Source of the DNA: an uncultured Gemmatimonadales bacterium
GTDB taxonomy: Bacteria; Gemmatimonadota; Gemmatimonadetes; Longimicrobiales; RSA9
Assembly: GCA_963708135.1 (NCBI GenBank)
Contig: OY970192.1
Location: 1,760,001-1,824,000 of the forward strand
Reading direction: 5' to 3'
DNA: 64,000 nt
The notes below the pieces were generated by a model. That model worked only from the letters and a program-made list of their open reading frames with translations, had not been told where the DNA came from and did no database searches. Shown here one piece after another: positions 1 through 18,982 of the stretch (within the stretch, counting starts at the first letter, position 1; every line of letters begins with the position of its first letter). Position numbers and translations under genes: made by a program.

Positions 1-532
<532 letters not shown>

Positions 533-585
533 GCGGGCGCGGCCGTCGCGCGCCGCCGCGCGCAGCCACTCGAAAGGAGAACACC

Positions 586-1227
586 ATGTCCAGCAGCTCC
601 CCGGGACGCACGGCCGTGCTGGCCGCCCTTGCCCTCCTGCTCGCCGCCTGCGGCGGCAGGCCCCCTGCCCAGGATCGCGGGGGCACCGTGCCGGCCGGCT
701 CCACCGGCGCCGGGCCCGGCGGCATGATGGGCCGGGGCGGGACGGTGGGACGCGCCGGCACGACGGGTGCGATGATGGGCGGGACGACGGGCGGGACGAT
801 GGGACGCGCCGGCATGACGGGCGGGATGATGGGACGCGCCGGCATGACGGGCGGGATGATGGGCGCCCGCGCCGACACCGCCGCCGCACCGCGCGCCCAG
901 GCCGCCGCAGCCACGGCCCCCGACTGTCCGCCGATCGCCCAGCCGCTCGTGGACCAGGGCCGCGCCATCTTCACCGGTGGCGGCAACTGCTTCGCCTGCC
1001 ACGGCAGCAACGCCAAGGGCACCGCCCTGGCCCCCGACCTCACCGACCAGACCTGGCTCAACATCGACGGCTCCTACGCCGCCATTGCCGACCTCGTCCG
1101 CACCGGCGTGGCCAAGCCGAAGCAGCACCCCGCGCCCATGCCGCCCCTGGGCGGTGCCCAGCTCGACCAGGCGCAGGTCTGCGCGGTGGCCGCCTACGTC
1201 TACTCGCTCGGGCACAAGGGCGGGTAG
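586..1227 (+). CDS. Lipoprotein monoheme cytochrome c with Met/Gly-rich linker
   Basis: RBS AAGGAG; lipobox LLAAC; CFACH heme motif; PMPP distal Met; GMTGGMMGRA repeats. Confidence 0.88.
   Translation: MSSSSPGRTAVLAALALLLAACGGRPPAQDRGGTVPAGSTGAGPGGMMGRGGTVGRAGTTGAMMGGTTGGTMGRAGMTGGMMGRAGMTGGMMGARADTAAAPRAQAAAATAPDCPPIAQPLVDQGRAIFTGGGNCFACHGSNAKGTALAPDLTDQTWLNIDGSYAAIADLVRTGVAKPKQHPAPMPPLGGAQLDQAQVCAVAAYVYSLGHKGG
781..870 (+). repeat. Three 30-bp tandem repeats encoding GMTGGMMGRA
   Basis: Units 781-810, 811-840 and 841-870 are near-identical. Confidence 0.85.
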
Positions 1228-1265
1228 CAGGTCCGGCCGCCGGCCGCGGCGGCGCCGCGACCCGT

Positions 1266-1495
1266 TTCGCCGAGGATCGGCGCCACACACGGTGTTCAGC
1301 CCGCGCCGAAGGCGACGCCGACGCCGACGCTCCCGGCATAGCCGGCCGGCTTGCGGGCGAGGTGCGCCCGCAGCTCACGCTCCAGACCCGGAATCCGGAG
1401 CCCGCCGAGCATCTGAGCGCCGAACAGGATGAGCACCGTGCCGCCGATCCGCTGCAGCCACACGCCTTGCGTGCGCAGCAGCGACCCCACCAGTC
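1266..1495 (-). pseudogene. ccdA: CcdA (DsbD-beta type) fragment with nonsense mutation
   Basis: LQRIGGTVLILFG...VAFGAG*TPCVAPILG: the conserved GWTPCxGPIL motif has Trp replaced by TGA at 1296-1298; both ends missing. Confidence 0.85.
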
Positions 1496-1691
1496 CGCGA
1501 GGCCTTCCTCGCGACGGTGCGGGGCGAGAGTGCCGGGCTGGAGAAGCCGGCATGCGTGCTGGACCTGCTCGAGCGCCTTCCGTAGGTGAAGAAGAGCGGC
1601 TGAACGCGGCGCCGCGGACACGAGAGAGGGCGCGCCGGCGGGCAGCGTGCCGCCGGCGCTCTCGTGCGGTATGCCGTCGCCGCGCGCTCGG

Positions 1692-2079
1692 TCAGGCGCT
1701 TCCCCCGGCCGGCGCTGCATCCGGCGGGGCCGTGGCCGCGCCTTCACCGTCGGGCCCGACCGGCCGGGTCCACCGGCGGAACGCCACCGAGAGGAGCCCC
1801 GCTCCGCCCAGCAGCAGCGCCAGCGGGCCGCCCCAGACCAGCAGGTTCACGCCCCGCTTCGGCGGGTCCAGCAGAATCCACTCGCCGTACTTTGCTCACG
1901 AAATAGGCGATCACCTGTTGGTCCGTTTCGCCCCGCGCGAGGCGCTCCCGCACCACCGCGCGCATGTCCTTGGCCAGGCCGGATGGGGACTCCAGGATCG
2001 AGAGCTGCCGGCAGATCGGGCAGCGCAGCCGGCTGGCCACGCGCTCGACGGCCGCGGCGAGCAGGATGGACAGGATCAT
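1692..2079 (-). pseudogene. ccmH: Cytochrome c maturation protein CcmH, frameshifted
   Basis: LRCPICRQLSILES...YFVSK, then an extra A near 1891-1893, then YGEWILLDPPKRGVNLLVWGGP in the next frame; stop 1692-1694; ATGA overlap with the upstream gene. Confidence 0.85.
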
Positions 2080-2633
2080 GATGCACCTCCCTTCGCGCCC
2101 CTTGCGGGCGCCGCCCGCTCGCGGAGCGCCTCGATCTCCGTGTCCAGCAGCGAGTCGCTCACGGGCCCGATGTGCTTGTGTCGGACGATGCCGTCGGCAT
2201 CGATGAAGAAGGTCTCGGGGACCCCGTAGACGCCGTAGTTGATCGCCATCCTGCTCTTCGGGTCCACGAGCTGGGTCCAGCCCCCGCCGTTCTCGGCCAG
2301 GTAGGCGCGCGCGTTGGCCTTCGAGTCCTGGAAGATCACCCCCACCATCACCACGCCCCGGTCGCGGTAGCGCCGCCATGCGCGCACCAGCGACGCGTGC
2401 TCCTGGCGGCAGGCCAGGCACCAGGAAGCCCAGAAGTTCACCACCACCGCCCGGCCACGCAGCTCCGACAGGGCCACCGAATCAAGCGCGTCGAGGCGCG
2501 CGAGCCGGAACTCGGGCGCGGGCGAACCCACGAGCGGACTCGGGATGAGCGAGGCATCCTTCGTCAGCCCGTAGCCGAACAGTCCGATCAAGGCGACGAC
2601 GATCGCCATGCCGAGAACCTTCCACCGGGTCAT
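2076..2633 (-). CDS. ccmG: Thiol:disulfide oxidoreductase CcmG/DsbE (TlpA family)
   Basis: N-terminal TM anchor; NFWASWCLAC; YGVYGVPETFFID; RBS AAGGAGG; ATGA overlap. Confidence 0.9.
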   Translation of the reverse strand: MTRWKVLGMAIVVALIGLFGYGLTKDASLIPSPLVGSPAPEFRLARLDALDSVALSELRGRAVVVNFWASWCLACRQEHASLVRAWRRYRDRGVVMVGVIFQDSKANARAYLAENGGGWTQLVDPKSRMAINYGVYGVPETFFIDADGIVRHKHIGPVSDSLLDTEIEALRERAAPARGAKGGAS

Positions 2634-3087
2634 GCCGCCACCTCCTTTGTTGCGGCGAGCGCCGGGGCGATCGTGGCCGCGCCCGCACGGCGCCGCGGCC
2701 CGGGCCACATCGCGACGAGGGCACCGCCGGCCAGGACCAGCGTGCCGATCCATAGCCACACCATGAGCGGCCGCACGACGAGGTGCAGCGTGGCCGAGGA
2801 GCCATCACGGGAGAACGCCAGCAGGTTGACGAAGAGGTCGTTCGCGGCCGTGCTCAGCACGGCCGGCGTCGGAACCGCCTCGTCCCGGTTCGGATAGTAG
2901 TTCTGGCGCGGCTCGACCCGCCCGATGAGGTGCCCGCGGCGCCTCACCTCGAGCGTGGTGCCGACGCCGACGCGGAACGCCTCGTCGCGCGCCCACACCT
3001 CGTCCAGCCGCAGCGCGTACAGCCCGATGCGCACCGTCTGCCCCGGCGCCAAGCGTGACCTCCGTCTCCTGCTTCGAGTTCCACGAA
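2630..3087 (-). pseudogene. ccmF: C-terminal fragment of heme lyase CcmF
   Basis: SWNSKQETEVTL / (extra T) APGQTVRIG...PAVLSTAANDLFVNL...RPLMVWLWIG matches the CcmF C-terminus; the N-terminal majority is absent. Confidence 0.82.
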
Positions 3088-3194
3088 GAAGGCTCGTTAA
3101 GGCTGGTTCACGCCGACCGCGCGTGAAGCGCCCCTCGCGCTCGAGCTCATCCCTGTCGGCCGCGCCGCAGAACCGCCGCCCCGGCCGCGCCGGA

Positions 3195-3248
3195 TGAGCC
3201 GTTCTTCACCGCGGTTTCAGGCCCGCTTCATGGGTGGTCCGCTATGCT
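3195..3248 (+). promoter_or_regulatory. Putative OmpR-family regulator box plus -10 (copy 1)
   Basis: TGAG(3195)-N6-TTCA(3205)-N7-TTCA(3216)-N7-TTCA(3227)-N12-TATGCT(3243). Confidence 0.75.
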
Positions 3249-3321
3249 TCGGGCGAACGAGAAGTCCGGTGCGGCCCACCAAGGTGGCGGCGCCGCGAAC
3301 CTGTGAAATCGGGAGGCGAGA

Positions 3322-3984
3322 ATGAAGCGGATGATCGGAGGAACGGCGGTCGCCTTGTTGCTGGCGGCGCTGCCCGTGGCGGCACAGGCTCAGCACGCCC
3401 ACCGGGCGCACGGCATGCAACCGGGCGGCCCCGGCGGTCGCGCCATGATGCAGGCCGGCGGCGGCATGATGGGCGGCGGGATGATGGGCGGCGGGATGAT
3501 GAGCATGATGGGCCAGGGGATGGGTGCCGGGATGGGGATCGGCCACGGCGTCCCGGGACCCGCCGCGCTCCTCGAGATGCGCGATGCGCTCGAGCTCACG
3601 CCGGAGCAGGTGACCCGGCTGGAGGCAATCCGCAAGACGACGGACGGCGCCGTAAGGAAGATGCGGCAGCAGGCACAGGAAGCGGCGACGCGCGCGAGCA
3701 AGCTGCGCGCGGCAACGTCGCCTGACCCGGACGCGTACGCCGCCGCGATCCGCGAGGCGGGCGCACCGCTGGTCGAGGCGCACGCGCTCACGGCCCGCAC
3801 GGCGCTGCAGGCACGCCAGCTCCTCACGGCCGAGCAGCAGAAGACGCTTGCAGCCGGGACGCAGGCCGGCGTGGCGATGTGTCGCGCCATGATGGGTGGG
3901 ATGGGTGGCGGCATGACGGGTGGCGGCGCGGCCGCCATGCACCAGGCGACGCCGTCGGGCGCGGCCCGCTCGACGCTCGACTGA
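3322..3984 (+). CDS. Periplasmic Spy/CpxP/ZraP-like Met/His-rich metal-binding protein
   Basis: Signal peptide (AQA); HAHRAH and Met-rich segments; LELTPEQ...LLTAEQQ LTxxQ motifs. Confidence 0.8.
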   Translation: MKRMIGGTAVALLLAALPVAAQAQHAHRAHGMQPGGPGGRAMMQAGGGMMGGGMMGGGMMSMMGQGMGAGMGIGHGVPGPAALLEMRDALELTPEQVTRLEAIRKTTDGAVRKMRQQAQEAATRASKLRAATSPDPDAYAAAIREAGAPLVEAHALTARTALQARQLLTAEQQKTLAAGTQAGVAMCRAMMGGMGGGMTGGGAAAMHQATPSGAARSTLD

Positions 3985-4092
3985 CTCACCGGCGCGCAGA
4001 CCAGACGGCCGGCAGCTCCGCATGAGGGGGCTACCGGCCGTTCGTGCGGTTCCGGCCGGTCCGCGGGGCGCCCGCGCCGGCCCTGATACGGC

Positions 4093-4389
4093 TCAGACCG
4101 GGTTCATGCGCGAGTGCTGCAGCACCTGCATCTTCTGCACGAACTCCTGCTCGGTCAGCTCACCGTCGGCGAACCGTCCGCGCAGCCGTTCCTCCGCGTC
4201 CAGCCGCTCCTGCGCCCAGCGGTGCGTCTCGCGCGTGTCCTCGTGCATGCGCCAGAAGGCCCAGAGGAGCAGCGCGATACACACGATCCAGAACGTCCAC
4301 CACGCCCAGTGCATCCCCATGAAGAGTCCCTGCCGGTGCCACGGCATGTCGTCCATCATCGCCTGGCCGGCGCCGAGCAGCGTGTCCAT
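4093..4389 (-). CDS. Small SHOCT-domain membrane protein
   Basis: RBS GAGGAGG; Met/Trp-rich TM helix; AEERLRGRFADGELTEQEF SHOCT motif. Confidence 0.82.
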   Translation of the reverse strand: MDTLLGAGQAMMDDMPWHRQGLFMGMHWAWWTFWIVCIALLLWAFWRMHEDTRETHRWAQERLDAEERLRGRFADGELTEQEFVQKMQVLQHSRMNPV

Positions 4390-4400
4390 TGCCTTCCTCC

Positions 4401-4742
4401 TCAAACGAGGGCGGCGAGGTTCTCGTCGCCCGTGCGGATCTTGACCACCCGTTCCACCTCCGAGATGCAGATGATGCCGTCGCCCTGGTGCCCCGTGGTG
4501 GCGGTCCGCCGAACCACGTCGATCAGCTCGTCCACACGCTCGTCGGGGACGATCACCTCGATCTTCGTCTTCTCCGTGTACGCGCCGCCCTCCTCGAAGG
4601 AGAGGCGGTAGTGCTCGGGGTCGACGCCGCTGCCGAGCGCGTGCACGTGGCAGATGAAGAGGCGCGGCACACTGGCCACCCCGAGCGCCTCGACCAGCGC
4701 GTCCACGCGCTCCCTCCGCACGATCATCTTGAGCAGCTTCAT
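4401..4742 (-). CDS. PII-family signal protein (non-canonical T-loop)
   Basis: MKLLKMIVR...KTKIEVIVPDERVDELID...TGHQGDGIICISEVERVVKIRTG; ATGA overlap with the kinase stop. Confidence 0.88.
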   Translation of the reverse strand: MKLLKMIVRRERVDALVEALGVASVPRLFICHVHALGSGVDPEHYRLSFEEGGAYTEKTKIEVIVPDERVDELIDVVRRTATTGHQGDGIICISEVERVVKIRTGDENLAALV

Positions 4743-6298
4743 GAGTGGGTCTCCAGTCGGGTGAGCGCCGCGGCGGCCGCGAGGCGGATCTCGCCCGCTC
4801 CACCCCCGACGGCCGCCGGCGTGCCGTCCGCGATGGTGCGGTCCCGGGCGCCGTCGGCCGCGGCGGATTCGCCCTCCTCTGCCGCCTCTGCCGCGACCGG
4901 GAACGAGACCGTGAACACCGCCCCACCGGCGGCCCGGTTCGCGGCCGTGATCGACGCCTCGTGAGCCTGTGCGATCGCTTGCGCGATCGAGAGTCCCAGC
5001 CCCGTGCCACCGACCATCCCGGCCGGCGTGCGACTCTCGTCCGCACGGAAGAAGCGGTCGAAGAGCCGTCCAATCTGGGCGTCGGGCAGGCCCGGTCCCG
5101 TATCGGCGACGCGGAGCAGCGCGCCGCCGGCGCCCGCTTCGACCTCGACCACGACCTCCCCTCCCGCGGGCGTGTACTTGATCGCGTTCTCGATCAGGTT
5201 GTAGGCGAGCCGCTCGACCAGCTCCGGGTCCGTGCATACGAGCGCGCTGCCCCGGCTCCGGAAGGTGAGGCGCACCTCTTCGCCGTGCGCCCGCGCCTGC
5301 AGGCGCTTGCAGGTGTGCGCCACCGGCGTCGCCAGCTCTCCGTCGCGCATCCGGGGTCGCAACACGCCCGCGTCCGCCCGCGCCAACGTGAGCAGGTCCT
5401 CCGCCGTGCGCCCCAGTCGGTGCGCCTCCTCGAGCGCGCTCGCGATCACGCGGCGGTACTCCACCGGCGCACGCTCGCGGCGCAACGCGAGCTCCAGCTC
5501 GCCCTGCAGGGCGGTGAGCGGCGAGCGCAGCTCGTGGCTCGCATCCGCCGTGAAGCGGCGCTGCGCATCGAAGGCCCGGTCCAGCCGCTCGAGCATCGTG
5601 TTGAGCACCTGCACGAGCCGCTGGTACTCCTGCGTGCCCGCGTACGCCTGGATGCGCCGCCCCAGCGTGTGTGCGCCGATCGCCTCCGACTGGTCGATGA
5701 TCTCGTCCACCGGCCGGACCACCCGCGCCGCCAGCCACCAGCTGCCGGCGAAGCTGCCCGCGCCCGCCACCAGGATCAGCGAGATGAGCAGCAGCCGCAG
5801 CCGCTCCAGGGTGAGGTTGCGCGCCACCAGCGGCGCCGCCACCTCCAGCACGTGGTGCGCGTGCGCCGGGCCCAGCCGCACCAGCGGGTAATAGAGCGAC
5901 CGCACGGGGATGTCCCCGAGACGCTGCTCCGCCGAGACCAGTCGTCCCTCCATCGCCTCGCGCAGCGCCGCCCGGTCGAGCGGCAGGTCGCGCGTCAGAT
6001 AGCGGGTCCGCAGCATACTCCGGCCGCCCGCCGTCCACACCTGCGCGTAGCGGTTCAGGTCCAGCACGGACGCCGCCTCGGCGGGGGTGAGCGCCCACTC
6101 GTGGAACTCCATCTTCGCCGAGCCGGGTTGCGTCAGCGACGCCGCCTGGATCGAGGCCAGGTTGATCAGGCTGGCGTTGATCTGCCGGTCCAGCGAGGCG
6201 CGCATCGCCATGTACGTCACGCCGCCCATAGCGAAGAGCGCGACGCCTACGCCCGCGGTCACGCGCGCGGCGAGCTGGAACCGGAAGGAGCGGATCAC
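4739..6298 (-). CDS. Heavy-metal sensor histidine kinase (CusS-like)
   Basis: Two TM helices, HAMP, FTADASHELRSPLT H-box, NLIENAIKY, DTGPG, GTGLGL; GTG start overlaps the regulator stop. Confidence 0.92.
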   Translation of the reverse strand: MIRSFRFQLAARVTAGVGVALFAMGGVTYMAMRASLDRQINASLINLASIQAASLTQPGSAKMEFHEWALTPAEAASVLDLNRYAQVWTAGGRSMLRTRYLTRDLPLDRAALREAMEGRLVSAEQRLGDIPVRSLYYPLVRLGPAHAHHVLEVAAPLVARNLTLERLRLLLISLILVAGAGSFAGSWWLAARVVRPVDEIIDQSEAIGAHTLGRRIQAYAGTQEYQRLVQVLNTMLERLDRAFDAQRRFTADASHELRSPLTALQGELELALRRERAPVEYRRVIASALEEAHRLGRTAEDLLTLARADAGVLRPRMRDGELATPVAHTCKRLQARAHGEEVRLTFRSRGSALVCTDPELVERLAYNLIENAIKYTPAGGEVVVEVEAGAGGALLRVADTGPGLPDAQIGRLFDRFFRADESRTPAGMVGGTGLGLSIAQAIAQAHEASITAANRAAGGAVFTVSFPVAAEAAEEGESAAADGARDRTIADGTPAAVGGGAGEIRLAAAAALTRLETHS

Positions 6299-6975
6299 GC
6301 CTCCGGCTCCTGGCGCAGGATGTAGCCGACGCCCCGCAGCGTGTGCAGCAGGGGCGGCCGCCCGCCGTCCCGCAGCTTCCGCCGCAGGTTGGCCACATGC
6401 ACGTCCACCACGTTCGACATCGGGTCGAAGTGCAGGTCCCACACCTTCTCGAGTAGCTCCGTGCGCCGCACCACCTCCTCCGGGTGCAGCAGGAAGTACT
6501 CGAGTAGCTCGAACTCCTTGGCCGTCAGGTCGAGCAGCTCGCCGCCGCGCCGGACCACATGCTTCAGCCGGTCCATCTCGATGTCCGCGTACAGCAGCCG
6601 CGCGAGCCGGGCGGCCCCGCCGCGCCGGATCAGCGCGCGCATCCGCGCCAGCAGCTCGTCGAAGTTGAACGGCTTCGTGACGTAGTCGTCGGCTCCCGCG
6701 TTCAGCCCCTCGATAATGTCGTCGGTCGCATCCCGCGCCGTGAGCATCAGGATCGGAACCGTCCTGCCGCTCGTGCGCAGCTCGTGGACGATCTGGTAGC
6801 CGTTCTTGCCCGGCAGCATCACGTCCACGAGAAGGCTGTCGTAGTCGTAGACGTGCGCGTTCAGCGCGCCCTCCGTCCCGTCGTTCGACACGTCCACCTC
6901 GTAGCCCTCCTCGCGCAGCCCCCGGGCGAGAAAGCTAGCCACCTTCCGATCGTCTTCGATGACGAGGACCCGCAT
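6295..6975 (-). CDS. OmpR-family response regulator (CusR/CopR-like)
   Basis: LVIEDD, DVMLP, GADDYVTKPF, SNVVDVHVANLRRK, HTLRGVGY; RBS AAGGAGG. Confidence 0.94.
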   Translation of the reverse strand: MRVLVIEDDRKVASFLARGLREEGYEVDVSNDGTEGALNAHVYDYDSLLVDVMLPGKNGYQIVHELRTSGRTVPILMLTARDATDDIIEGLNAGADDYVTKPFNFDELLARMRALIRRGGAARLARLLYADIEMDRLKHVVRRGGELLDLTAKEFELLEYFLLHPEEVVRRTELLEKVWDLHFDPMSNVVDVHVANLRRKLRDGGRPPLLHTLRGVGYILRQEPEA

Positions 6976-7005
6976 GCTCACCTCCTTGATCGTTGCCCCG
7001 CGTCG

Positions 7006-7059
7006 AATGTCGCGCGGGGCGCATGAAGTCGAGGTGAATCCGGCGTGAAGAAGCGTTCA
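7006..7059 (-). promoter_or_regulatory. Regulator box plus -10 upstream of the two-component operon (autoregulation)
   Basis: Minus strand: TGAA(7059)-N6-TTCA(7049)-N7-TTCA(7038)-N7-TTCA(7027)-N12-GACATT. Confidence 0.8.
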
Positions 7060-7123
7060 TGGAAGCGCTCACCCGCGTCTCGCTCGCCCGCCTGCTGCGG
7101 GCCGAAGGCCGGCGGCGGCGGCG

Positions 7124-7588
7124 TTACGCCTGCTTGCTCACGACGATCTCGTTGCCCTGTACCTTGACTATATAGGGCGCGAGCGGCCGGGGCGGTGGTC
7201 CCGAGACGTTCTTGCCGTTCAGGTCGTAGTGACCGTTGTGGCAGGCGCACCAGATGTCGGAGTGCTCGCTGCCGTATTGCACGATGCAGCCGAGATGCGT
7301 GCAGATGGCGGTGAAGGCCCGCAGCTCGCCCTGCGGGGTCCGGATCAGGATCCCCGGCTTGTTGCCGAACCTGAAGATCTGCCCCGAGTTGAGTGGCACG
7401 TCCGAAGGCTTGACGCTGAGCACGACCGAGTTGACAGCCGACTCGCCCGACTCCGGCGGGTCCAGGTACTCCGCCACCGGGTATGAGATGGCGATGAACA
7501 TGCCCCCGAGGGTCGTACCCAGCAGCCAGTCCAGGAAGCGCTTTCGGTTCACTCCGCCGCTCCCGGGCTCGCCGGGCGGTGCCGTCAT
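7124..7588 (-). CDS. Rieske [2Fe-2S] protein (QcrA/PetC-like, Tat-type anchor)
   Basis: NRKRFL signal; CTHLGC and CACHNGHY boxes; SGPPPRPL. Confidence 0.92.
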   Translation of the reverse strand: MTAPPGEPGSGGVNRKRFLDWLLGTTLGGMFIAISYPVAEYLDPPESGESAVNSVVLSVKPSDVPLNSGQIFRFGNKPGILIRTPQGELRAFTAICTHLGCIVQYGSEHSDIWCACHNGHYDLNGKNVSGPPPRPLAPYIVKVQGNEIVVSKQA

Positions 7589-7663
7589 TGCTCCTCTCTC
7601 CTTTCCGCAGCCTGCGCCTGGCCGGGCACCGTGGTCGGGGCGGGGCGGCCAACCCCTCCCCTC

Positions 7664-8584
7664 TCAGGCCGAGCGCAGGGCGCGCGTGGGTGCGCCGCAC
7701 CTGGCGCAGTAGCGGTCGTCCGGCGAGAGCGACTCCCCGCATTGCGTACAGAAGCGTGCCGCGCCCGTTTCCGGCCGGCTCGCGCTTTCCCGTGCGCCCA
7801 CATCCGCCCTGCCGCGTACGATCCGCGGCCGGACGAGCGGCCAGAGCCCGAAGCCCGCGGACACCAGAGCCACGAGGGCCAGGATCGCGATCGCGGTCCT
7901 GTGGCCTCCGGGCGCGGCGGGTGGGGTGGCCGATGACGTGGCATCACCGGGGGATGCGATGGAGGGCTGGTCATCCGTCTTGCGGTAGGCCACGGTCACC
8001 GCCTTCCGCGCGCCCGCCTTCACGCCGTCGTATTGCAGGACGTAGTAGTTGAAGCCGTTCCGGTCCTGGCTCACCTGTTCCGTGAGCGGCGAGATCGTGA
8101 AGTCCTGCGCCCGCTGCGGCTCCTGCACCGCCACCACGAGCGTATCCATGACGAACGGCGAGAGGACGGTGTAGGTGAAGCGGCGCTGCGCCGCGCCCCC
8201 CAGCGGGTTGTAGTAGAACTCCATATAGAAGTCCGGCACCGTCAGGCGGTACGTGAGCTCGACCAGCCCGTCCGCGCGCTTGTGCGTCTGATACGTCGCG
8301 TGGATGTGCTGCCCGTTCGCGTCCACCCCTCCCACCATGTGCACGTGTGCGCCGTCCGGGATCACGAACGTGAAATCGGTCGGCGTCTTTCCCGGCGCCA
8401 CCAGGCTCCCCTTGTAGATCAGGAGCACCCGCGGCTCGTCGTACTCGGGCCAGATCTCCACGTCCATGTACGAGATCACCGGCGCCGGATCGGCCCGCGA
8501 TGGCCGGGGCGTCCCCGCGACGGCCGCGGTGCCGAGCGGCGGGAGCGTACCCGCCAGCAGAGCGGCAAGGATCGGTGTGAGCAT
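7664..8584 (-). CDS. Exported membrane-anchored protein with C-terminal zinc ribbon
   Basis: Signal peptide; IWPEYD domain; TM helix; FCTQCG...YCARCG. Confidence 0.78.
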   Translation of the reverse strand: MLTPILAALLAGTLPPLGTAAVAGTPRPSRADPAPVISYMDVEIWPEYDEPRVLLIYKGSLVAPGKTPTDFTFVIPDGAHVHMVGGVDANGQHIHATYQTHKRADGLVELTYRLTVPDFYMEFYYNPLGGAAQRRFTYTVLSPFVMDTLVVAVQEPQRAQDFTISPLTEQVSQDRNGFNYYVLQYDGVKAGARKAVTVAYRKTDDQPSIASPGDATSSATPPAAPGGHRTAIAILALVALVSAGFGLWPLVRPRIVRGRADVGARESASRPETGAARFCTQCGESLSPDDRYCARCGAPTRALRSA

Positions 8585-8627
8585 GCGGCTGTCCCTCGTC
8601 GGATGAGTCCCGCTCGTCCTCGAATCC

Positions 8628-8681
8628 AGGATGCGCAACGCGGCCTGAAGCGGGCATGAAATCCGGGTTAAGCCGCGTTCA
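8628..8681 (-). promoter_or_regulatory. Regulator box plus -10 for the zinc-ribbon/Rieske operon
   Basis: Minus strand: TGAA(8681)-N6-TTAA(8671)-N7-TTCA(8660)-N7-TTCA(8649)-N12-CATCCT. Confidence 0.78.
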
Positions 8682-8724
8682 TGCGGCGATCCGCAAGCGC
8701 GAGCCGGCCGGACTCCTGCCATCG

Positions 8725-8778
8725 TGAAGTCGACTTCATGTCCACTTCACCATGGCTTCACCACGGCAGGAGTATCCT
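8725..8778 (+). promoter_or_regulatory. Regulator box plus -10 for the PCYCGC/cytochrome c operon
   Basis: TGAA(8725)-N6-TTCA(8735)-N7-TTCA(8746)-N7-TTCA(8757)-N12-TATCCT(8773). Confidence 0.82.
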
Positions 8779-8821
8779 TGCGGGGTGTTCAGAGTGTCCC
8801 GCCAGAACAGGAGAGTGAACA

Positions 8822-9289
8822 GTGGGCAAGAACCGGAAACAGAGCGCCGGGCGTGGCGGCGGCAGGCGGCGGAAGTGGACGTCGCTCCTGCCCTGGGGCA
8901 TCACCGCGGCGGCGCTGCTCGCGATCCTCGTCCTCGCGGCGCAGGGACGTGGGCATGGCACAGCCAGCCACCATCCGACCCCGCGCAGCGATGCGGCGAC
9001 GACGCAGGCGCGCAAGATCGTGCCGGCCTCCGCCTACGCCGCGTATCCCCGCATCCAGGAGACCTACCGCGAGGCGGCGCTGGTGCCGCAGGTGCTGGAT
9101 GGCATCTACTGCTACTGCGAGTGCAAGGAGCACATGGGACACTACTCGCTGCTGGACTGCTACAAGAGCGACCACGCGGCGGGCTGCGACGTGTGTCTCT
9201 CCGAGGGTGAGCTGGCCTACAAGATGACGCAGCAGGGCAAGTCGCTCGACCAGATCAGGGCCGCCGTGGACCGCCTATACGGCGCATGA
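8822..9289 (+). CDS. PCYCGC-motif-like Cys/His metal-binding exported protein
   Basis: N-terminal TM helix; IYCYCECKEHMGHYSLLDCY...HAAGCDVC. Confidence 0.82.
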   Translation: MGKNRKQSAGRGGGRRRKWTSLLPWGITAAALLAILVLAAQGRGHGTASHHPTPRSDAATTQARKIVPASAYAAYPRIQETYREAALVPQVLDGIYCYCECKEHMGHYSLLDCYKSDHAAGCDVCLSEGELAYKMTQQGKSLDQIRAAVDRLYGA

Positions 9290-9741
9290 GAACGCGGGCC
9301 ATGCGGTCCTGCCCGCACCTGGCTGCCGGCGCGGCCGCCGTGCTCGCGCTGCTCCTGGCCGCCTGCAACTCCGGGCCACGGGAGCGAAGGAACGCGGTCG
9401 GCCGGCAGGTCGCGCTCGAGGAGCTCTCCCGCATGAATACCCGCATGGCCCCCGATGCCTCGCTGGCCGGCGTCAGCGCACAGGGCGTGAGCGGCATTGT
9501 GCCGCTCCGCCCCCGCCCGCTCCGGGACCAGGCCGATTCCAGCGACTTCCGTCACTTCGTGCACCGCTGCAACGCCTGCCACGCCGCGCCCGACCCCTCC
9601 ATGCACACTGCCGGCGAGTGGGCGGTCGTGATCAGCCGGATGAAGGACAACATGCGCCTCGCCGGCCTGCTCCCCCTCCGGCCACAACAGGAGCGGGCGA
9701 TCATGGAGTTCCTTACCCGGGGCGCCGGGCTTGCCCCCTGA
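9286..9741 (+). CDS. Lipoprotein monoheme cytochrome c
   Basis: LLAAC lipobox; CNACH...HTAGEW...RM; ATGA overlap. Confidence 0.82.
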   Translation: MRTRAMRSCPHLAAGAAAVLALLLAACNSGPRERRNAVGRQVALEELSRMNTRMAPDASLAGVSAQGVSGIVPLRPRPLRDQADSSDFRHFVHRCNACHAAPDPSMHTAGEWAVVISRMKDNMRLAGLLPLRPQQERAIMEFLTRGAGLAP

Positions 9742-9810
9742 GCCGGGGCCCGGCGCCACTGTCTGGGGACGGGCCGGGAGTTGCTGCGCCGCGCGGGCTC
9801 GGAGTCCCGT

Positions 9811-11061
9811 TCAGGCGCTCGCGCACAGGCACGTGTGGCTCGAGCCGGCCAATGTGCAGGCCCCGGCGGCGCACTCGCACGCCAGGCGCAACACCGTCGG
9901 TACCGCGTTCGCCCGCGGCACCGACGAGTGGCCGGCCCCTCGAACCCGCTTCCATTCGGCGCGCCACCCGCGCAGGAGGGAAGCATCGTGCGCATTCCCT
10001 CCATTCACCACCGCAGCCAACAACGCGTACGCCCAGCGCCGGCGCCCTGCGAGCTCGATCAGGTCGGAGGCCAGGCTCCCGCCGTAGAGCACGCGGCGGA
10101 CACGTCGCGCGACCGCGAATTCCCGCTCCAGGTTGGACCTGGCGATGGCCGGATAGCGCGCGAAGGTGCCGTCGCGCTCGAACGCCTCCGCAAGGAAGTC
10201 CGCCGAGCGGATCGCGTTCTGGATGCCTTCGCCAGTGGCGGGATCGGCGAAGCCCGCAGCATCCCCCAGCAGGGCGTAGTCCCGCTGAGCCAGAAGCGCA
10301 TAGTACGGGAGCGGGATCGCGGCGGTGCCGATCACGGCACCGGCACGCGCGCCGGCCGTGCAGCCGCACCGCCCCAGTGCGTCCCAGTAGGCATCCACCT
10401 CCGCGTCCAACCGACGCCGGTTCCACGTGCGCGGCGCCACGCCCACCCCGATCGAACGGTGAGCCGGGCGGGGAAATTCCCAGGCGTAGCCGTGCATGCC
10501 CGGAAAGAAGCGGAGGCCGATGGCCTCCGGCGTGGTTCCGGCGCCCGGGGCGTACGCCACGCGCGCTGGCGCCAGCTCGATCCTCAGCTCCGGTGCGACG
10601 ACGGCCCGGACGCGGCTCGCGGCGCCGTCGGCGCCAACGAGCAGGCGAACGTGGGCAACCCCGCCATCGCTGGTCTCCAGACACCACCCGTCGGAATGCC
10701 GGAGGATCCGACGCACGCCCATGGGCTCGAAGCTGGCGCCGGCCCTCCGTGCACGGGCGAGCTGCCAGGCACCAAGCTCACGTCTGGAGAGGACGTACAG
10801 GGGTCGCTCGAGCGGCACCCGGACCTCCGTTGCCCGTGTCTCCAGGCGGACCGCTTCGATGCGCCGCGCCCGTGAACAGAGCTCGCCGAGATCCGGCACG
10901 TTCTCCAGCGCGGCCGCCGTCAGTCCACCTCCGCACGGCTTCTCCCAAGGCGCATGGGGATCGAACAGGACCACCTCCGCACCCGCCAGTGCGAGGCGCT
11001 CGGCCGCCCTGGCGCCCGCCGGACCGGCGCCCACGATCCCGATCTGCCCATTGATACGCAT
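9811..11061 (-). CDS. Geranylgeranyl reductase-family FAD oxidoreductase
   Basis: GAGPAG, EKPCGGG, GADG, YAWEFP, LGDAAGFADPATGEGI. Confidence 0.88.
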   Translation of the reverse strand: MRINGQIGIVGAGPAGARAAERLALAGAEVVLFDPHAPWEKPCGGGLTAAALENVPDLGELCSRARRIEAVRLETRATEVRVPLERPLYVLSRRELGAWQLARARRAGASFEPMGVRRILRHSDGWCLETSDGGVAHVRLLVGADGAASRVRAVVAPELRIELAPARVAYAPGAGTTPEAIGLRFFPGMHGYAWEFPRPAHRSIGVGVAPRTWNRRRLDAEVDAYWDALGRCGCTAGARAGAVIGTAAIPLPYYALLAQRDYALLGDAAGFADPATGEGIQNAIRSADFLAEAFERDGTFARYPAIARSNLEREFAVARRVRRVLYGGSLASDLIELAGRRRWAYALLAAVVNGGNAHDASLLRGWRAEWKRVRGAGHSSVPRANAVPTVLRLACECAAGACTLAGSSHTCLCASA

Positions 11062-11103
11062 GTCGGATGTCTCCGTTCTGGTCCGAGCTGGACTTCCTGC
11101 CGG

Positions 11104-11147
11104 AATCTGTTGCGGTTGCGGTGAATGGCGCGTGAGATCGACATGAA
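11104..11147 (-). promoter_or_regulatory. Regulator box (direct-repeat part) plus -10 for the reductase
   Basis: Minus strand: TTCA(11147)-N7-CTCA(11136)-N7-TTCA(11125)-N12-CAGATT. Confidence 0.62.
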
Positions 11148-11239
11148 GAAGCGCCAATGCCTCCCGGGGCCCCGAGTCGCCCCTCCATGGAGGGCCTTTG
11201 CGGGGCACACAGCGGGGCAATGATGGGCCCGTATCGAAG

Positions 11240-11430
11240 GCTCCGCCTGAGTCCACTTGCCGTTACGGAAAGCCCGGTCCCCAGCGCGACCACCAGAGCA
11301 CCGGGAAGAGCACGAAGAACGTGACGAGCCGCTGCCGTGGAACAGCACCAGTCCCCCACTCGCGCGCGCGGCCGACGAGAACACGTCCGCGCCTCTCGAG
11401 GGGTGTGATGTTGATCTCCGGTCGCTTCAT
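11240..11430 (-). pseudogene. DUF2892/YgaP-like small membrane protein, multiply frameshifted
   Basis: MKRPEINITPLERRGRVLVG; hydrophobic segments (GGLVLF, ALVVALGTGLSVTASG) continue in other frames. Confidence 0.5.
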
Positions 11431-11514
11431 CGACATTCTTCTTTCGGAACTCCGCAATGCGGGGCCGGCGACGCGGATCTACGCTCGCGTTCAGCAGCCG
11501 CGCTACGCCGCCAA

Positions 11515-11568
11515 AGGATGGCGCGCCGCGCGTGAAACCCGCGTGGAATCGTGGTCAATGGCATTTCG
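11515..11568 (-). promoter_or_regulatory. Degenerate regulator box plus -10 for the DUF2892-like gene
   Basis: Minus strand: CGAA-N6-TTGA-N7-TCCA-N7-TTCA(11536)-N12-CATCCT. Confidence 0.58.
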
Positions 11569-11601
11569 TGGTGGCTGGCCACTCTCAACCTGGGTTTGTC
11601 C

Positions 11602-12417
11602 GTGAACACCCCCATCCAGGGCGCTACCGCCCTCTGGCTCGCGCTGGCGATCCCGTCCGCGGCGTTTGCCGCCTACGACCTGGCCCGCAACCAGCCGATC
11701 GCCACCGTCATGCGCTGGGGCTGGGTCCTCGTGATCCTCTATACCGGCCCCGTCGGACTCGTCATCTACCTGCTCGCCTGTCGTGAACCGCTGGCGGGCA
11801 CACACGAGGCCTACGTCGCCCCGCGCTGGAAGCAGGCCGTCGGCTCGACGATCCACTGCGTGGCCGGGGACGCCACCGGAGTCATCCTCGGCGCCGTGGT
11901 AGGCTTCTTCCTCCATCTGAGCCGGATCGGCGACGTCGCCTTCGAGTACGCCGCCGGGTTCGCCTTCGGGCTCCTCATCTTTCAGGCGCTGTTCAGTCGC
12001 ATCATGATGGGCGGCAGCTACTGGAGCGGAGTGCGCAGGACGATCCTCCCCGAATGGCTATCGATGAATGCCCTGATGGGGGGCATGATCCCGGTGATGG
12101 TCCTCCTCATGGACGACGGCTCGGGGCCGACAGGGCTCCGCTTCTGGGGCGTCATGTCGCTGGCCATCTTCGTCGGCGCCCTGGTGGCCTACCCGGTCAA
12201 CCTCTGGCTCGTGGCGCGCGGGCTGAAGCACGGCATGGGGACGGTGCGCGTGCTCGGGCAGGGAGGGCAGCCCCCGGCCGCCGCAGGCGTCGCCTCACAC
12301 GCGGGGCACGGCATGAGCACGCGGCCGCGACCAGGCCGGCGGGAAACCGCTCTCGTCCTGCTGGCCAGCCTCTCGGCGCTCGCGGTCGGGCTCGCCATCG
12401 CGTGGGGAATCGGCTGA
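11602..12417 (+). CDS. DUF4396-domain membrane protein (start uncertain)
   Basis: WKQAVGSTIHCVAGDATG; AYPVNLWLVARGLKHGM. Confidence 0.82.
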   Translation: MNTPIQGATALWLALAIPSAAFAAYDLARNQPIATVMRWGWVLVILYTGPVGLVIYLLACREPLAGTHEAYVAPRWKQAVGSTIHCVAGDATGVILGAVVGFFLHLSRIGDVAFEYAAGFAFGLLIFQALFSRIMMGGSYWSGVRRTILPEWLSMNALMGGMIPVMVLLMDDGSGPTGLRFWGVMSLAIFVGALVAYPVNLWLVARGLKHGMGTVRVLGQGGQPPAAAGVASHAGHGMSTRPRPGRRETALVLLASLSALAVGLAIAWGIG

Positions 12418-12533
12418 TGCGCGCGCCCCGGCTGACCTGGCTGCGCTCGTGAGGGCGACGCAGCCCGGGGAGCCGAGTCTCAGCTCTCGTTGGTGAATCA
12501 GCGTTCATAAAGGAGCGCTTCGCGAGCTGGACA

Positions 12534-12569
12534 TGAAGGCAGACTCACGCCGGTTTCAGTCTCGCTTCA
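12534..12569 (+). promoter_or_regulatory. Regulator box upstream of the CMD/AhpD gene
   Basis: TGAA(12534)-N6-CTCA(12544)-N7-TTCA(12555)-N7-TTCA(12566); the -10 is weak. Confidence 0.68.
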
Positions 12570-12693
12570 CCCGCGACCGCCTGGTTTCCCCCCGGGGACG
12601 CAGGAGCGCGGCACGGCGCTCCGGTCGCCCCCCGCCGATCCGCGACCAATGGTCGGCACGCCGCCCTGTCGATCGATGGAACAGGAGCACGTC

Positions 12694-13158
12694 ATGGAGA
12701 GCAGGTTGGATTACCGGAACGCGGCGCCGGGCGCGCTGGAGGCCATGCTCGGCCTCGAGCGCTACACCCACGCGAGCGGCCTCGAGCCCTCGCTCCTCGA
12801 GCTCGTCAAGATGCGCGCCTCACAGCTCAACGGCTGCGCTTATTGTCTGGACATGCACAGCAAGGACGCGCGCGCAGCGGGTGAGGCCGAGCAGCGCCTC
12901 TACGTCCTCGCCGCCTGGCGCGAGGCGCCGTTCTACTCGGACCGCGAGCGCGCGGCGCTGGCCTGGACCGAGGCGGTCACGCTCATTTCGGCCAACGACA
13001 TGCCGGATGCCCTCTACGCGCAGGTGCGCGAGCATTTCTCCGAGAAGGAGCTGGTCGACCTCACCCTCGCGATCATCGCCATCAACGGATGGAATCGACT
13101 GGCGATCTCGTTCCGCGCCGAGGTCGGCAGCTATCAGCCCCGCCGCGCGGGAACGTAG
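12694..13158 (+). CDS. Carboxymuconolactone decarboxylase/AhpD-family protein
   Basis: ELVKMRASQLNGCAYCLDMH; INGWNRLAI; RBS CAGGAG. Confidence 0.92.
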   Translation: MESRLDYRNAAPGALEAMLGLERYTHASGLEPSLLELVKMRASQLNGCAYCLDMHSKDARAAGEAEQRLYVLAAWREAPFYSDRERAALAWTEAVTLISANDMPDALYAQVREHFSEKELVDLTLAIIAINGWNRLAISFRAEVGSYQPRRAGT

Positions 13159-13167
13159 AGGTGGCCG

Positions 13168-13455
13168 TCAGCCCCCGGAGGTTTCGCCCACGTTCACGCC
13201 TACGGCGAATGGTTCCGCCGTACGTCGCAGCACCCGGACGCGCCAGACCTCCGGTCCCCGCTCGAGGTACTCGAAGTCGAAAGCGTCGTCGCCGCGCGTC
13301 GCCTTGAGCGTGTAGTACATACAGGTGGGGTCGTGGTCGACGACCAGCTCCAGCACCTCGCCGACGGGGACGGCCGCATAGGCCGACATGATGGCGTCAT
13401 AGCGGTCCTTCGGCGGGACGGGGCGCACGTCGAGGAGATGCATTGCAGGGCTCAT
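13168..13455 (-). CDS. DUF2249-domain protein
   Basis: LDVRPVPPKDRY...LVVDHDPTCMYY...YLERGPEVWRV. Confidence 0.85.
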   Translation of the reverse strand: MSPAMHLLDVRPVPPKDRYDAIMSAYAAVPVGEVLELVVDHDPTCMYYTLKATRGDDAFDFEYLERGPEVWRVRVLRRTAEPFAVGVNVGETSGG

Positions 13456-14213
13456 CGTGGCTCAACTCCTGAGAGATCGGGCGTCGGATCGAGGCGGAGC
13501 GGCAGCGGCTCCTCCTTGCTGCCGCACCCCCAGGCGCGCTGGCTCAGCCAGGCGTTCCATACGACGCGGAAGCGCGGCGAGCTGGGCGCGAGCGCGAGGG
13601 TGCCGCGGAAGCGGGCGAGCGTGAGGCGGGCCATGAGCGGCCCGATCCCCTGCCCTTCCCGGCCCGCCACCTCCGGCCCACCGCCGAGCAGGCGGATGTG
13701 CCGAAGCGCATCGCCGGCCGTCTGGAGCACGGCAGAATGGGCGTTGGCGAAACCGGGCACGCCAGGATCGGCGTCCCAGGCGAGCGCGAGCGCCTCGGGC
13801 GCATGGCCGGGGAGCGCGCTCCGGAGTCGGGCGGCCTCCTCGGGATCGCTGCCGTGAACGAGCAGCAGCAGCGCGCCCGCGGCCTGATAGGTGGCCATGA
13901 GCTGCGGGAGCCGCGCCGGCGCAATGCTGCCCGGAGGCGCCACGATGGGCGCGCGGAGCCGCTGGGCGAGGCGCGCCAGCGCGGGGTCGGCCGGATCGTC
14001 GCCGGGGCGGAGCCGATAGCCCGCCACGGCGATGCCGTGCCGGTTCAGCCCGTCCAGCCGGCGCTCGAGCAGCTCGGCCGGCAAGCCAGGCTCGATCCCG
14101 TGGCCGTCGCCGGCCACGAGCTCCACGGCGGCCAGCCCGCGGCGCACGCAGGCCGCGGCGAGCTCCTCGAGCGCCAGATCGGGCGCGGCCGAGCTGCTCA
14201 GCGAGAGACGCAC
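13452..14213 (-). CDS. Hypothetical TIM-barrel protein (xylose isomerase/AP endonuclease 2-like, degenerate)
   Basis: RLSLSSSAAPDLALEELAAAC...GLAAVEL...HG; C-terminal WGCGSK; GTG start 3 nt after the upstream stop. Confidence 0.65.
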   Translation of the reverse strand: MRLSLSSSAAPDLALEELAAACVRRGLAAVELVAGDGHGIEPGLPAELLERRLDGLNRHGIAVAGYRLRPGDDPADPALARLAQRLRAPIVAPPGSIAPARLPQLMATYQAAGALLLLVHGSDPEEAARLRSALPGHAPEALALAWDADPGVPGFANAHSAVLQTAGDALRHIRLLGGGPEVAGREGQGIGPLMARLTLARFRGTLALAPSSPRFRVVWNAWLSQRAWGCGSKEEPLPLRLDPTPDLSGVEPR

Positions 14214-14215
14214 CG

Positions 14216-14458
14216 TCAGCTCGTGCGCGAGATGCGGACGCGCCAGACGACGGGGCCCTGCTCGAGGTACTCCCAGCCGAAGCGGCCGGCGTGCTCGTAC
14301 TCGAACTGGTAGCGCAGCGGGCGCGGGTCGTGGTCGTTGACCAGAATGAACGCTTCCCCGGGGGCGAGCCCCTCGAAGGTCGCGAAGATGGTGGGGTGCT
14401 TCTCGCGCGGGGGGATGACCCGCACGTCGAGCTCGGCCGGGCCGGTGGTCTCGGGCAT
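14216..14458 (-). CDS. DUF2249-domain protein
   Basis: LDVRVIPPREKHPTIF...LVNDHDPRPLRYQF...YLEQGPVVWRV. Confidence 0.9.
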   Translation of the reverse strand: MPETTGPAELDVRVIPPREKHPTIFATFEGLAPGEAFILVNDHDPRPLRYQFEYEHAGRFGWEYLEQGPVVWRVRISRTS

Positions 14459-14500
14459 GATGCTCTCCGTTGAACGAAGTGATGCGCGGATACTCCGCGC

Positions 14501-15502
14501 TTACGAATCCGCCGCGCGGCGGATGAACACACGTACCAGCTCCCGCCCCTGCGGCCGGACCTCGTAGACGAAGCCGCGCTCGTCGAGGAGCGGCAGGAGA
14601 AATCGCGGCTCGCGCACGTTGATCTGCACGAGCGTCCGTCCCGGAGGCAGCTCCTCCAGCGCGGCGAGGGTGCGGACCATCGGCTCGGGCGGCTCGAGGC
14701 CGCGGACGTCCAGGACCACGACATCGTCGTCCCCCGGCGGCGTGCCATCTCTGGCGGCGGCGGGCGCGTCCTCGGAAGCGCCGGCGCGACCGGGCTCCTC
14801 CGCCGGCCGGGCGGCGCCCAGGTCGCCAGCCGGGGCTTCCGGCCGGTAGAACCAGACGCACCAGTCGTCGTCGGCCAGCCGCTGCGTCCAGTGGGCGAAA
14901 CCCTGTTTCGCGAGCACGGCGTAGAGCGGGACGGGCTCGAAGATGGCCCGCAGCCGCAGCGCGCCGTCGTCGGGGATCTCGCGCCGCGCCGCCATGATCC
15001 GGCTGAACGGCTCCTCGCCTCGACGCAGGTCGTCGCGCACGTCCAGCTCGACGATCCGCTCCGGTGGCAGTGCCGCGAGGGCAGCGGGGGGCGCATCATC
15101 GGCAGCCGGCGCGGCGGCATCACGCAGCGCACGGGCGGCGTCGGCCGACCCGGCGGGTGCGGCGCCGGACCGGTCCGAAATGGTCGCCGGCGCCGGGGCA
15201 TCGCCGCCGCGTGGTGCAGCGGAGGCGCCCGTGGCGGGCGTTCCGGCCGTGCGGCCCGCTGCCTCCGCAGGGCGCGCCCCGACGCCCGCCTCGAGGGCGC
15301 GGTTGAGCTCGCCAACGAGCGCGGCCGGGTCGAGCCCGGCCATGCGCGCGGCCTGCTCGACGGTCACGAGCCGGGCCATGGTCCTGCGCATGATCGGGTT
15401 GCGCAGGCGCTGGAAGGCGGGGGCGAGGCCGGCGAGCAGCTCGACGAAGCGCTCGTCGCGGGCGAGGACCGCGGAGACGCGGTCGGAGGCCCGGATCACC
15501 AT
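14501..15502 (-). CDS. DUF1858-like plus two DUF2249 domains
   Basis: [37 protein letters not shown]...[19 protein letters not shown]. Confidence 0.85.
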
Positions 15503-17093: not shown

Positions 17094-17099
17094 CGGCGG

Positions 17100-17176
17100 C
17101 AGTCGCGCGTCATCCCGGGGTAGGCAATCTGCGCCAGTGCGGAGCGCACCGAGTCTTCCGTGAGATTGCTCGTCAT
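17100..17176 (-). pseudogene. N-terminal remnant of an Mrp/ApbC Fe-S carrier
   Basis: RBS GAGGAG followed by MTSNLTEDSVRSALAQIAYPGMTRD, resembling the Mrp N-terminus; ends abruptly at the next gene's start. Confidence 0.55.

Positions 17177-17263: not shown

Positions 17264-18982
<1,719 letters not shown>

Follow-up and report, generated by a model that had tools for sequence, protein, structure and literature searches.

A four-part TTCA promoter element ahead of copper-type genes in a Gemmatimonadota genome, the probable activator site of a local OmpR-family regulator

In a 64,000-nt stretch of the genome of an uncultured Gemmatimonadales bacterium (GenBank assembly GCA_963708135.1, contig OY970192.1, forward-strand positions 1,760,001–1,824,000; hereafter the window), seven copies of a four-part box were found. 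The box consists of an inverted TTCA half-site (TGAA), six nucleotides, and three direct TTCA half-sites separated by seven nucleotides, that is, repeated at an 11-bp period, followed 12 nt further by a −10-like hexamer. Its geometry is fixed, it lies ahead of gene starts, it is spread through the phylum and its layout matches that of the CusR/LciR operators. It forms a real and unusually clean regulon signature and is probably the activator site of the regulator encoded at 6295..6975 and of a paralogue, which would be switched on when a membrane kinase senses periplasmic copper or silver; that the regulon is copper-responsive in this genome appears quite likely.

Seven look-alike promoters had been listed in the original prediction, and all of them (7/7) were located where it had placed them, together with the hexamers 12 nt past the last TTCA (TATGCT, GACATT, CATCCT, TATCCT, CAGATT, CATCCT and a weak TGGTTT). 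Box 1 (+ strand, 3195–3230, −10 TATGCT at 3243–3248, span 3195..3248) deviates at one of the 16 pattern bases, scores 40.2 bits with the matrix described below and has a predicted start at 3255–3256. Box 2 (− strand, 7059–7024, −10 GACATT at 7011–7006, span 7006..7059) is exact and represents the putative autoregulatory promoter, with a predicted start at 6999–6998. Box 3 (− strand, 8681–8646, −10 CATCCT at 8633–8628, span 8628..8681; one mismatch) is divergent from the exact box 4 (+ strand, 8725–8760, −10 TATCCT at 8773–8778, span 8725..8778). Box 5 (− strand, 11147–11122, −10 CAGATT at 11109–11104, span 11104..11147; 28.0 bits) has three direct half-sites and has lost the inverted one; its frame begins at 11157, and the position 11147, by which it had been cited, is that of the first TTCA. 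Box 6 (− strand, beginning at 11568, −10 CATCCT at 11520–11515, span 11515..11568) is decayed, with three mismatches, and box 7 (+ strand, 12534–12569, span to 12587; one mismatch, 37.3 bits) has the weak −10 TGGTTT lacking A at position 2. The boxes before the geranylgeranyl (GG)-reductase, YgaP-like and AhpD genes (5, 6 and 7, respectively) look decayed or weak. A lone TGAA-N6-TTCA palindrome (12494..12507, +) lies 40 nt ahead of box 7.

The genome, a single 5.45-Mb contig of 72% GC, contains 13 boxes: 12 lie within an 18-kb copper island, namely the seven of the window and five others located 2.3–5.2 kb ahead of its start, and one, at genome position 1,636,194, lies beside a paralogous regulator gene. 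Eleven of the 13 deviate at no more than two of the 16 bases (ten between 1,754,825 and 1,772,534, one at 1,636,194). When both strands of the whole genome were searched with the 10/11 spacing of the box, five exact matches and ten with at most one mismatch were obtained, whereas a control with these words set at 39 other spacings produced no exact match and never more than four with one mismatch or fewer. A matrix was trained on 105 distinct sites from relatives only, which had been selected by the same 16-base pattern; its independence therefore applies to the −10 and the flanks and not to the half-site words. In these sites, the first two bases of half-site 2 are TT in 100 and 105 of the 105. 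The matrix retrieved 13 genome sites above 22 bits, the same 13 boxes as listed above; the reversed matrix retrieved none and three column-shuffled matrices 0, 0 and 1. The next-best matches (15.8 and 15.3 bits) were opposite-strand shadows of real boxes, and no real match fell between 16 and 24 bits in 5.4 Mb. The possibility that the motif is equally frequent at random positions was thus examined by the matrix and the spacing controls, and the box stood far above both. By the gene caller of this analysis, 85% of the genome is coding, and yet 12 of the 13 boxes lie entirely between genes. The box is specific enough for the whole regulon to be listed from sequence alone.

Partial look-alikes were also inspected. 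Lone palindromes at genome positions 176,763, 384,796, 1,658,098 (between a SoxR-like gene and a divergent gene) and 3,086,239 are not accompanied by the direct repeats. Three-repeat matches at 104,315 and 1,595,747 were rejected: they are identical copies with no inverted half-site, no −10 and no called protein gene around, and the stretches holding them are possibly rRNA operons. A perfect 11-bp tandem repeat at about 2777900–2777960 (−) is intergenic and unrelated to the box.

The phase of the −10 hexamer was strict. Its signature (A at position 2, T at position 6) occurs at spacer 12 in 12 of the 13 boxes and at spacers 8–11 and 13–16 in 0–1 of 13; in relatives, 50 of 60 distinct type-A boxes have the −10 at spacer 12. 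No usable −35 was found in any of the 13 boxes (best match three of six or fewer at spacers 16–18), and the window region 500–14500 contains no sigma-70 consensus promoter; the proposal that an OmpR-family activator box replaces the −35 is supported. For a transcription start 6 nt past the hexamer, the half-sites would lie at about −60, −50, −39 and −28. A first regulator dimer may then bind head-to-head to the palindrome (about −60 to −47) and a second one in tandem to half-sites 3 and 4 (about −39 to −25), where it would cover the −35 region, placed as the pho box at phoB is, one base further from the −10. This tandem dimer is predicted to contact region 4 of sigma-70, to recruit the sigma-70 polymerase (class II activation) and to set the direction of transcription, which would fit the observation that the divergent boxes 3 and 4 each have a full element of their own. 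The output would comprise metal efflux (CusCBA-like, CopA), Met-rich periplasmic binders (Spy-like, Big_5), PCYCGC and cytochrome c accessories, and the regulator operon.

The element is not confined to this genome. With at most one mismatch, the box was detected in 127 of 400 phylum genomes (two for the reversed control) and a regulator matching that of the window at E ≤ 1e-85 in 156; both were present in 107 genomes, the box only in 20, the regulator only in 49 and neither in 224. The corresponding numbers in family f2 were 14, 3, 0 and 53 (f1, f2, f4 and f7 are labels of the genome collection searched). The one-mismatch pattern misses boxes with two mismatches, such as those at several regulator promoters. 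Among the matches listed, the exact 16-base pattern was also found in Acidobacteriota, Nitrospira, Opitutae, Chloroflexi, Rokubacteria and Bacillota records; of the 127 matches in that listing, 33 have a −10-like hexamer at spacer 11 and 35 at spacer 12, compared with 3–11 at the other spacers, and at least four of the matches listed precede OmpR-type regulator genes (L069, L145, L154 and L164). No publication on this box or on a Gemmatimonadota regulon was found by a literature search that missed most subscription journals.

The genes behind the boxes point to copper. The five boxes upstream of the window, which were outside the view of the original prediction, head a TolC-CusB-like-CusA operon (its CusA scores above the TIGR00914 cut-off), a Met-rich Big_5 gene, a gene for a 315-aa membrane protein, a small Cys-Cys peptide gene and a YHS-CopA-cytochrome c unit; since cusCBA- and copA-type genes are among them, the regulon is mainly a copper regulon. 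The copA-type P1B ATPase gene (3′ end at 44..532, +) begins 1.9 kb before the window, scores 607.6 bits with TIGR01511 (cut-off 397) and is likely driven by the box at genome position 1,757,682 via the YHS gene, and the Met/Gly-rich cytochrome c lipoprotein gene behind it (586..1227, +; PF13442/PF00034), found in the same order in the syntenic relative G012, is likely the final gene of the unit. The small membrane peptide, rich in Met, His and Gly and ending in Cys-Cys (genome 1757333–1757572, −), lies behind the box at 1,757,664 and has no Pfam match.

First genes were counted behind 88 boxes from 20 type-A relatives, the count covering fetched loci rather than whole genomes. TolC/CusC-like genes were found first in 13 of these genomes, the regulator in 7, CopA and Big_5 in 6 each, Spy-like proteins in 4, PCYCGC and YHS in 3 each and P-II in 2; multicopper oxidase genes also recur behind the boxes of relatives. 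The Rieske, GG-reductase, YgaP and 315-aa protein genes came first in one genome each, and AhpD, the zinc-ribbon gene, DUF4396 and USP in none of the 20. Of the targets originally claimed, the Spy-like and PCYCGC genes recur (4/20 and 3/20), but the Rieske and GG-reductase genes (1/20 each) and AhpD (0/20) are weak links. Even the single cases are modest: the boxed Rieske gene of the one relative is 31% identical to that of the window, and the GG-reductase match extends over the N-terminal 61 aa only.

Within the window, box 1 precedes a gene for a Met-rich Spy/CpxP-like (LTXXQ) periplasmic protein (3322..3984, +; PF07813), and box 2 the regulator operon, which contains the regulator, its kinase (both described below), a P-II-like gene (4401..4742, −; PF00543) and, likely as the last gene, one for a SHOCT membrane protein (4093..4389, −; PF09851). 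The first gene behind box 3 encodes an exported protein with a C-terminal zinc ribbon (7664..8584, −; PF13240) and the second a Rieske 2Fe-2S protein (7124..7588, −; PF00355). Behind box 4 lie a PCYCGC gene (8822..9289, +; PF13798) and a gene for a lipoprotein (9286..9741, +) with one CxxCH haem motif in its translation and no Pfam match, which follows PCYCGC in 3 of the 20 relatives as well. Box 5 precedes a gene of the geranylgeranyl-reductase family of flavoproteins (9811..11061, −; TIGR02032 126.5 bits, below the cut-off of 158.8), and box 7 an AhpD/CMD-family gene (12694..13158, +; PF02627, TIGR00778). The YgaP/DUF2892-like gene behind box 6 (11263..11430, −) is frameshifted after about 20 codons, either a pseudogene or an assembly error: its first 16 aa are 94% identical to an intact 79-aa PF11127 gene of G012, and then it diverges. 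Because the G012 orthologue is intact and has a box with one mismatch, against three here, the gene and its operator appear to have decayed together, although an assembly error is possible.

In G012, an AhpD homologue (58% identical) closes a boxed cus-like operon and DUF4396 closes another boxed operon. Other boxes of this relative head an Rnf/Nqr membrane-subunit pair (L301, 12687–14102), class I methyltransferases and an M50 protease-ABC1 kinase-DUF4396 operon. A PCYCGC paralogue of the genome under study was found in a box-free cluster (genome 3938581–3942517) with a metal-sensitive repressor, which we take to be CsoR-like, a P1B ATPase and an HMA chaperone, forming a second copper-type unit, and the cop cluster of pMOL30 contains cytochrome c, DUF411 and DUF2933 genes. 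These two clusters and the first-gene counts indicate a copper-homeostasis regulon with its usual accessories rather than a mainly respiratory one. Consequently, the view that the copper response is extended here to redox and respiratory proteins was overstated: such genes do follow boxes, but the core targets are CusC/B/A-like and CopA-like. The copper link of the boxes, also part of the original prediction, stood.

Two neighbouring regions of the window are recorded here for completeness. Positions 1296–3052 (−) hold what is left of a ccm operon: CcmF is reduced to its C-terminal 123 aa, CcmG is intact, CcmH is frameshifted, and short fragments of membrane proteins are also present. The genome has intact ccmFGH genes at 1,335,031–1,338,145. 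Positions 13168–20671 contain genes for DUF2249 proteins, DUF1858, an FeS-assembly protein, a COX1-like membrane protein, an FTR1 iron permease, a ScdA/hemerythrin repair protein and a helix-turn-helix regulator, and no box.

The candidate binder of the boxes is the OmpR-family response regulator encoded at 6295..6975 (−; PF00072 and PF00486). It had been called CusR-like, and TIGR01387 is indeed the best of all families, but the score (231 bits; 236.6 for the paralogue) is below the cut-off of 279.2, and in a quick tree 35 Gemmatimonadota regulators formed a clade of their own (SH-aLRT 98) outside the five-row CusR/SilR/PcoR/CopR1/HprR clade (99), both clades sharing one unresolved group (86). 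The recognition helix is nearly invariant across the 35 Gemmatimonadota regulators. The autoregulation that had been proposed found support, as the exact box 2 lies ahead of the regulator gene and the regulator is first after a box in 7 of the 20 type-A relatives. The adjacent gene (4739..6298, −) encodes a membrane histidine kinase with HAMP, HisKA and HATPase domains, whose best family is TIGR01386 (239.8 bits, below the cut-off of 292.55). Its periplasmic residues M63, H66, E67, W68, H146 and H149 are conserved without exception in the type-A kinases compared (14 of 14), whereas all four membrane kinases of family f4 lack them; they are candidate Cu(I)/Ag(I) ligands; the kinase would bind the metal through the conserved Met and His residues and then phosphorylate the regulator. 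The sensor domain had no match in PDB or Pfam searches, and CusS clusters appear among the Atlas look-alikes of the kinase at 0.92, which is a lead. As this domain matches the profile of the CusS/SilS/PcoS/CopS/HprS group weakly (HHalign 22.9%), copper or silver as the signal rests on the targets and the conserved residues.

Several observations weigh against this interpretation: the sub-threshold family scores of the regulator and the kinase, the weak profile match of the sensor domain, and the USP gene headed by the thirteenth box. The co-occurrence of box and regulator is inflated by kinship among the genomes, and 49 genomes have the regulator without a box of at most one mismatch. The pcoA promoter does not fit the geometry of the element (see below). 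Moreover, the signal cannot be read off the box, because in family f4 this box and this regulator clade are found ahead of stress genes that are not copper genes.

In an alternative interpretation, regulator and box are the same and the kinase mainly senses oxidation of the envelope or reactive chlorine, as HprS does, or general periplasmic stress, the copper genes being only part of the output. The hiuH site of HprR has the same geometry, the sensor domain bears no clear resemblance to CusS, genes for Met-rich Spy-like and Big_5 proteins, AhpD, TlpA/CcmG-like proteins and a protease follow boxes, and oxidation of the invariant M63 would be a plausible signal. However, the commonest first genes encode CusC-like proteins, CopA and multicopper oxidases, three invariant His residues stand alongside the Met, and no Msr gene was found among the annotated targets; we regard this alternative as unlikely.

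It seems less probable still that the boxes are read mainly by a system other than the local one. A paralogous regulator-kinase pair is encoded at genome 1,634,055–1,636,174; its regulator shares 73% identity with the local one, has almost the same recognition helix and could bind the same boxes, and its kinase has the same Met/His residues. The pair has no box in its own promoter and is followed by a box (1,636,194), a USP gene and a Met-rich Big_5 gene (genome 1634055–1637824). Yet 12 of the 13 boxes are grouped near the local pair, the local regulator is alone in having a box ahead of its own gene, and in G012 all boxes (11/11) lie by the closer regulator orthologue and none by the second copy. 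A more distant OmpR regulator is likewise disfavoured, the others of this genome falling outside the clade that tracks the box.

That the boxes are pho boxes or FeuP-type boxes of a phosphate or osmotic envelope regulon is very improbable. A TTCA/GTCA word at an 11-bp period is found at phoB too, and TTCA-type repeats of the same period constitute Motif 3 of Sinorhizobium meliloti FeuP in the accessible part of that report (PMC3616915), but the phoB promoter has two repeats, an 11-nt gap to the −10 and no inverted half-site; the regulator scores 188 with the PhoB family (cut-off 296.2) and none of the 13 boxes precedes phosphate genes, so the pho box was rejected. Chance repeats or small mobile repeat copies without a regulatory role, for which nothing but the clustering in one island speaks, are effectively refuted by spacer sequences that are unrelated from copy to copy, near-zero spacing controls, the fixed −10 phase and the conservation of the pattern over the phylum.

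Copper activation through the Met/His membrane kinase, as preferred above for the lineage of the window, may not hold for family f4, where the kinase of the window is rare (4 of 53 at 1e-80). All ten tested proteins encoded upstream of the f4 regulator had a GAF-HisKA-HATPase architecture, and at 110 of the 123 f4 places listed the gene of such a kinase stands immediately ahead of that of the regulator, which is OmpR-type; among the remaining 13, several are near contig ends. At 1e-110 it was detected in 123 of 166 f4 genomes and in none of the 107 f1, f2 and f7 genomes. The best PDB matches of its GAF domain are the GAF-A domains of DosT/DosS (E 1e-44), and in the one protein aligned His and Tyr occupy the haem-ligand and distal positions; a DosS-like haem/oxygen sensor is predicted. 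Behind the boxes of 20 f4 loci, the first genes besides the regulator encoded, by Pfam, USP (6), CBS (3), and Hsp20, BON, nitroreductase, PEP synthase, Cu-oxidase, cytochrome c and TonB_C proteins (1 each), with six lacking an assignment. In these loci (L209–L228) the box of the regulator overlaps the 3′ end of the GAF kinase gene, and a membrane kinase gene follows downstream in some f4 loci, a P-type ATPase gene taking its place in others.

The f4 regulator promoters also bear on the −10 assignment. For 28 listed box rows picked by eye beside regulator matches, 27 could be paired with a regulator start within 300 nt, and the ATG followed the hexamer after 6 nt in 14, 7 nt in 10, 9 nt in 2 and 35 nt in 1 (computed for the 12-nt spacer, some of these promoters having 11). 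Since the ATG is 6–7 nt past the hexamer in 24 of 27, a leaderless transcript is likely, and the −10 call gains independent support.

These data slightly favour a scheme in which one regulator clade keeps one DNA word and the sensor is swapped: the Met/His membrane kinase would run the copper regulon in the lineage of the window, and in f4 a DosS-like haem-GAF HisKA kinase would act through this box on USP, CBS, Hsp20, BON, nitroreductase and PEP-synthase genes. USP, CBS, Hsp20 and nitroreductase targets resemble the DosR regulon. If the scheme is true, a DosR-like hypoxia or dormancy regulon has been built from a copper-type OmpR system, a metal-sensing regulator being turned to oxygen sensing through kinase exchange, and its presence can be recognized by sequence in roughly one third of a soil phylum with hardly any cultured members. 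As in the mycobacterial DosS/DosT-DosR system, within the accessible part of its description (PMC4082495), the GAF domain keeps the proximal His and distal Tyr positions; the differences lie in the regulator (NarL-type DosR against an OmpR-type partner in f4), in the HisKA core of the f4 kinase and in the box, here the four-part TTCA element. A DosS-like kinase feeding the regulator of the window was considered and rejected: the GAF kinase of this genome (1,339,812–1,341,404; 45% identity) adjoins a receiver-domain regulator that was read as NtrC-like by eye, and no box above 4 bits was found within about 15 kb of it.

The combination of a palindrome with a triple repeat had been thought not to be a recognized box, which did not hold, and a novel architecture was ruled out by the geometry of Escherichia coli cusC and hiuH and by the published LciR element. 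The cusC promoter has an inverted half-site, 6 nt, a half-site, 7 nt, a half-site, 7 nt, a near half-site, 12 nt and the −10, and hiuH has the same geometry with a degenerate fourth site; the distance from the first base to the hexamer is 48 nt, as in cusC, in 12 of the 13 boxes of this genome. Seven of the 33 upstream regions examined, taken from four known Cu/Ag loci, have the 6/7/7/12 geometry (cusC, hiuH, silC, silE, a pcoE-like gene, Cupriavidus copA and a copH-like gene, the names pcoE and copH-like being our presumption), and the divergent regulator promoters at these loci do not fit it.

For the published operators, the accessible parts of the cited papers are compared here. The LciR element of Legionella consists of an inverted repeat and two 4-bp elements at a precise distance before the −10, is conserved in homologous systems, and requires all four parts for copper induction (Linsky et al., 2020, PMC6989116); primer rows in the same source suggest 6/7/7 spacing for lciE. 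Shared with the present system are the inverted repeat and two short elements before the −10, the adjacent heavy-metal-type two-component system and the copper-resistance targets; in contrast, the LciR/CusR word is GTAA/GTCA rather than TTCA, of the four half-sites the last is the best kept in the present element, the regulator here belongs to a separate clade, and one or a few promoters per genome are described there against 13 here (PMC6989116). The AgrR box of Cupriavidus metallidurans combines a 6-4-6 inverted repeat with in-phase direct repeats, and activation depends on the two together (Ali et al., 2020, PMC7380067); AgrR is likewise a proposed class II activator at promoters with a poor −35, but its word is ATTACA, its direct repeats are imperfect and variably placed, and its context is a silver-resistance mutant (PMC7380067). 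The half-site word GT(A/C)A of CusR, LciR and AgrR is not matched by the boxes here. The Pseudomonas CusR/CopR/CzcR palindromes (PMC11195947) and the E. coli HprR/CusR hiuH box (PMC9302797) share the 6-nt core spacing and the cross-regulation by paralogues; they have another word and are presented, in the accessible text, as palindromes only.

TTCA words are known from simpler boxes. The copM and copB promoters of Synechocystis pSYSX have two TTCA repeats at an 11-bp period, an 11-nt gap to a −10-like hexamer and no inverted half-site. Synechocystis CopR reportedly binds these repeats. Corynebacterium glutamicum CopR, a copper-responsive OmpR regulator, has two TTCA direct repeats at 11 bp, against three here (PMC3140484), and with the pho box and FeuP Motif 3 (PMC3616915) the 11-bp repeats over the −35 are shared, whereas the inverted half-site is absent there and the targets are unrelated. 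Considering these comparisons, the element has the operator layout of CusR/LciR and, judged by that layout, would work like it, under a regulator that lies outside the CusR orthologue clade by two tests. The architecture itself will not surprise the specialist; however, the element provides a clean natural example of a four-half-site CusR/LciR operator, presented as a palindrome in most of the accessible papers, and suits a structural test of two differently oriented dimers. It also suggests likely copper roles for PCYCGC, Met-rich Big_5, Spy-like, DUF411 and SnoaL-like genes in a phylum with almost no regulatory data. What is new here, compared with the known systems, is the TTCA word, the separate regulator clade and the multi-operon regulon.

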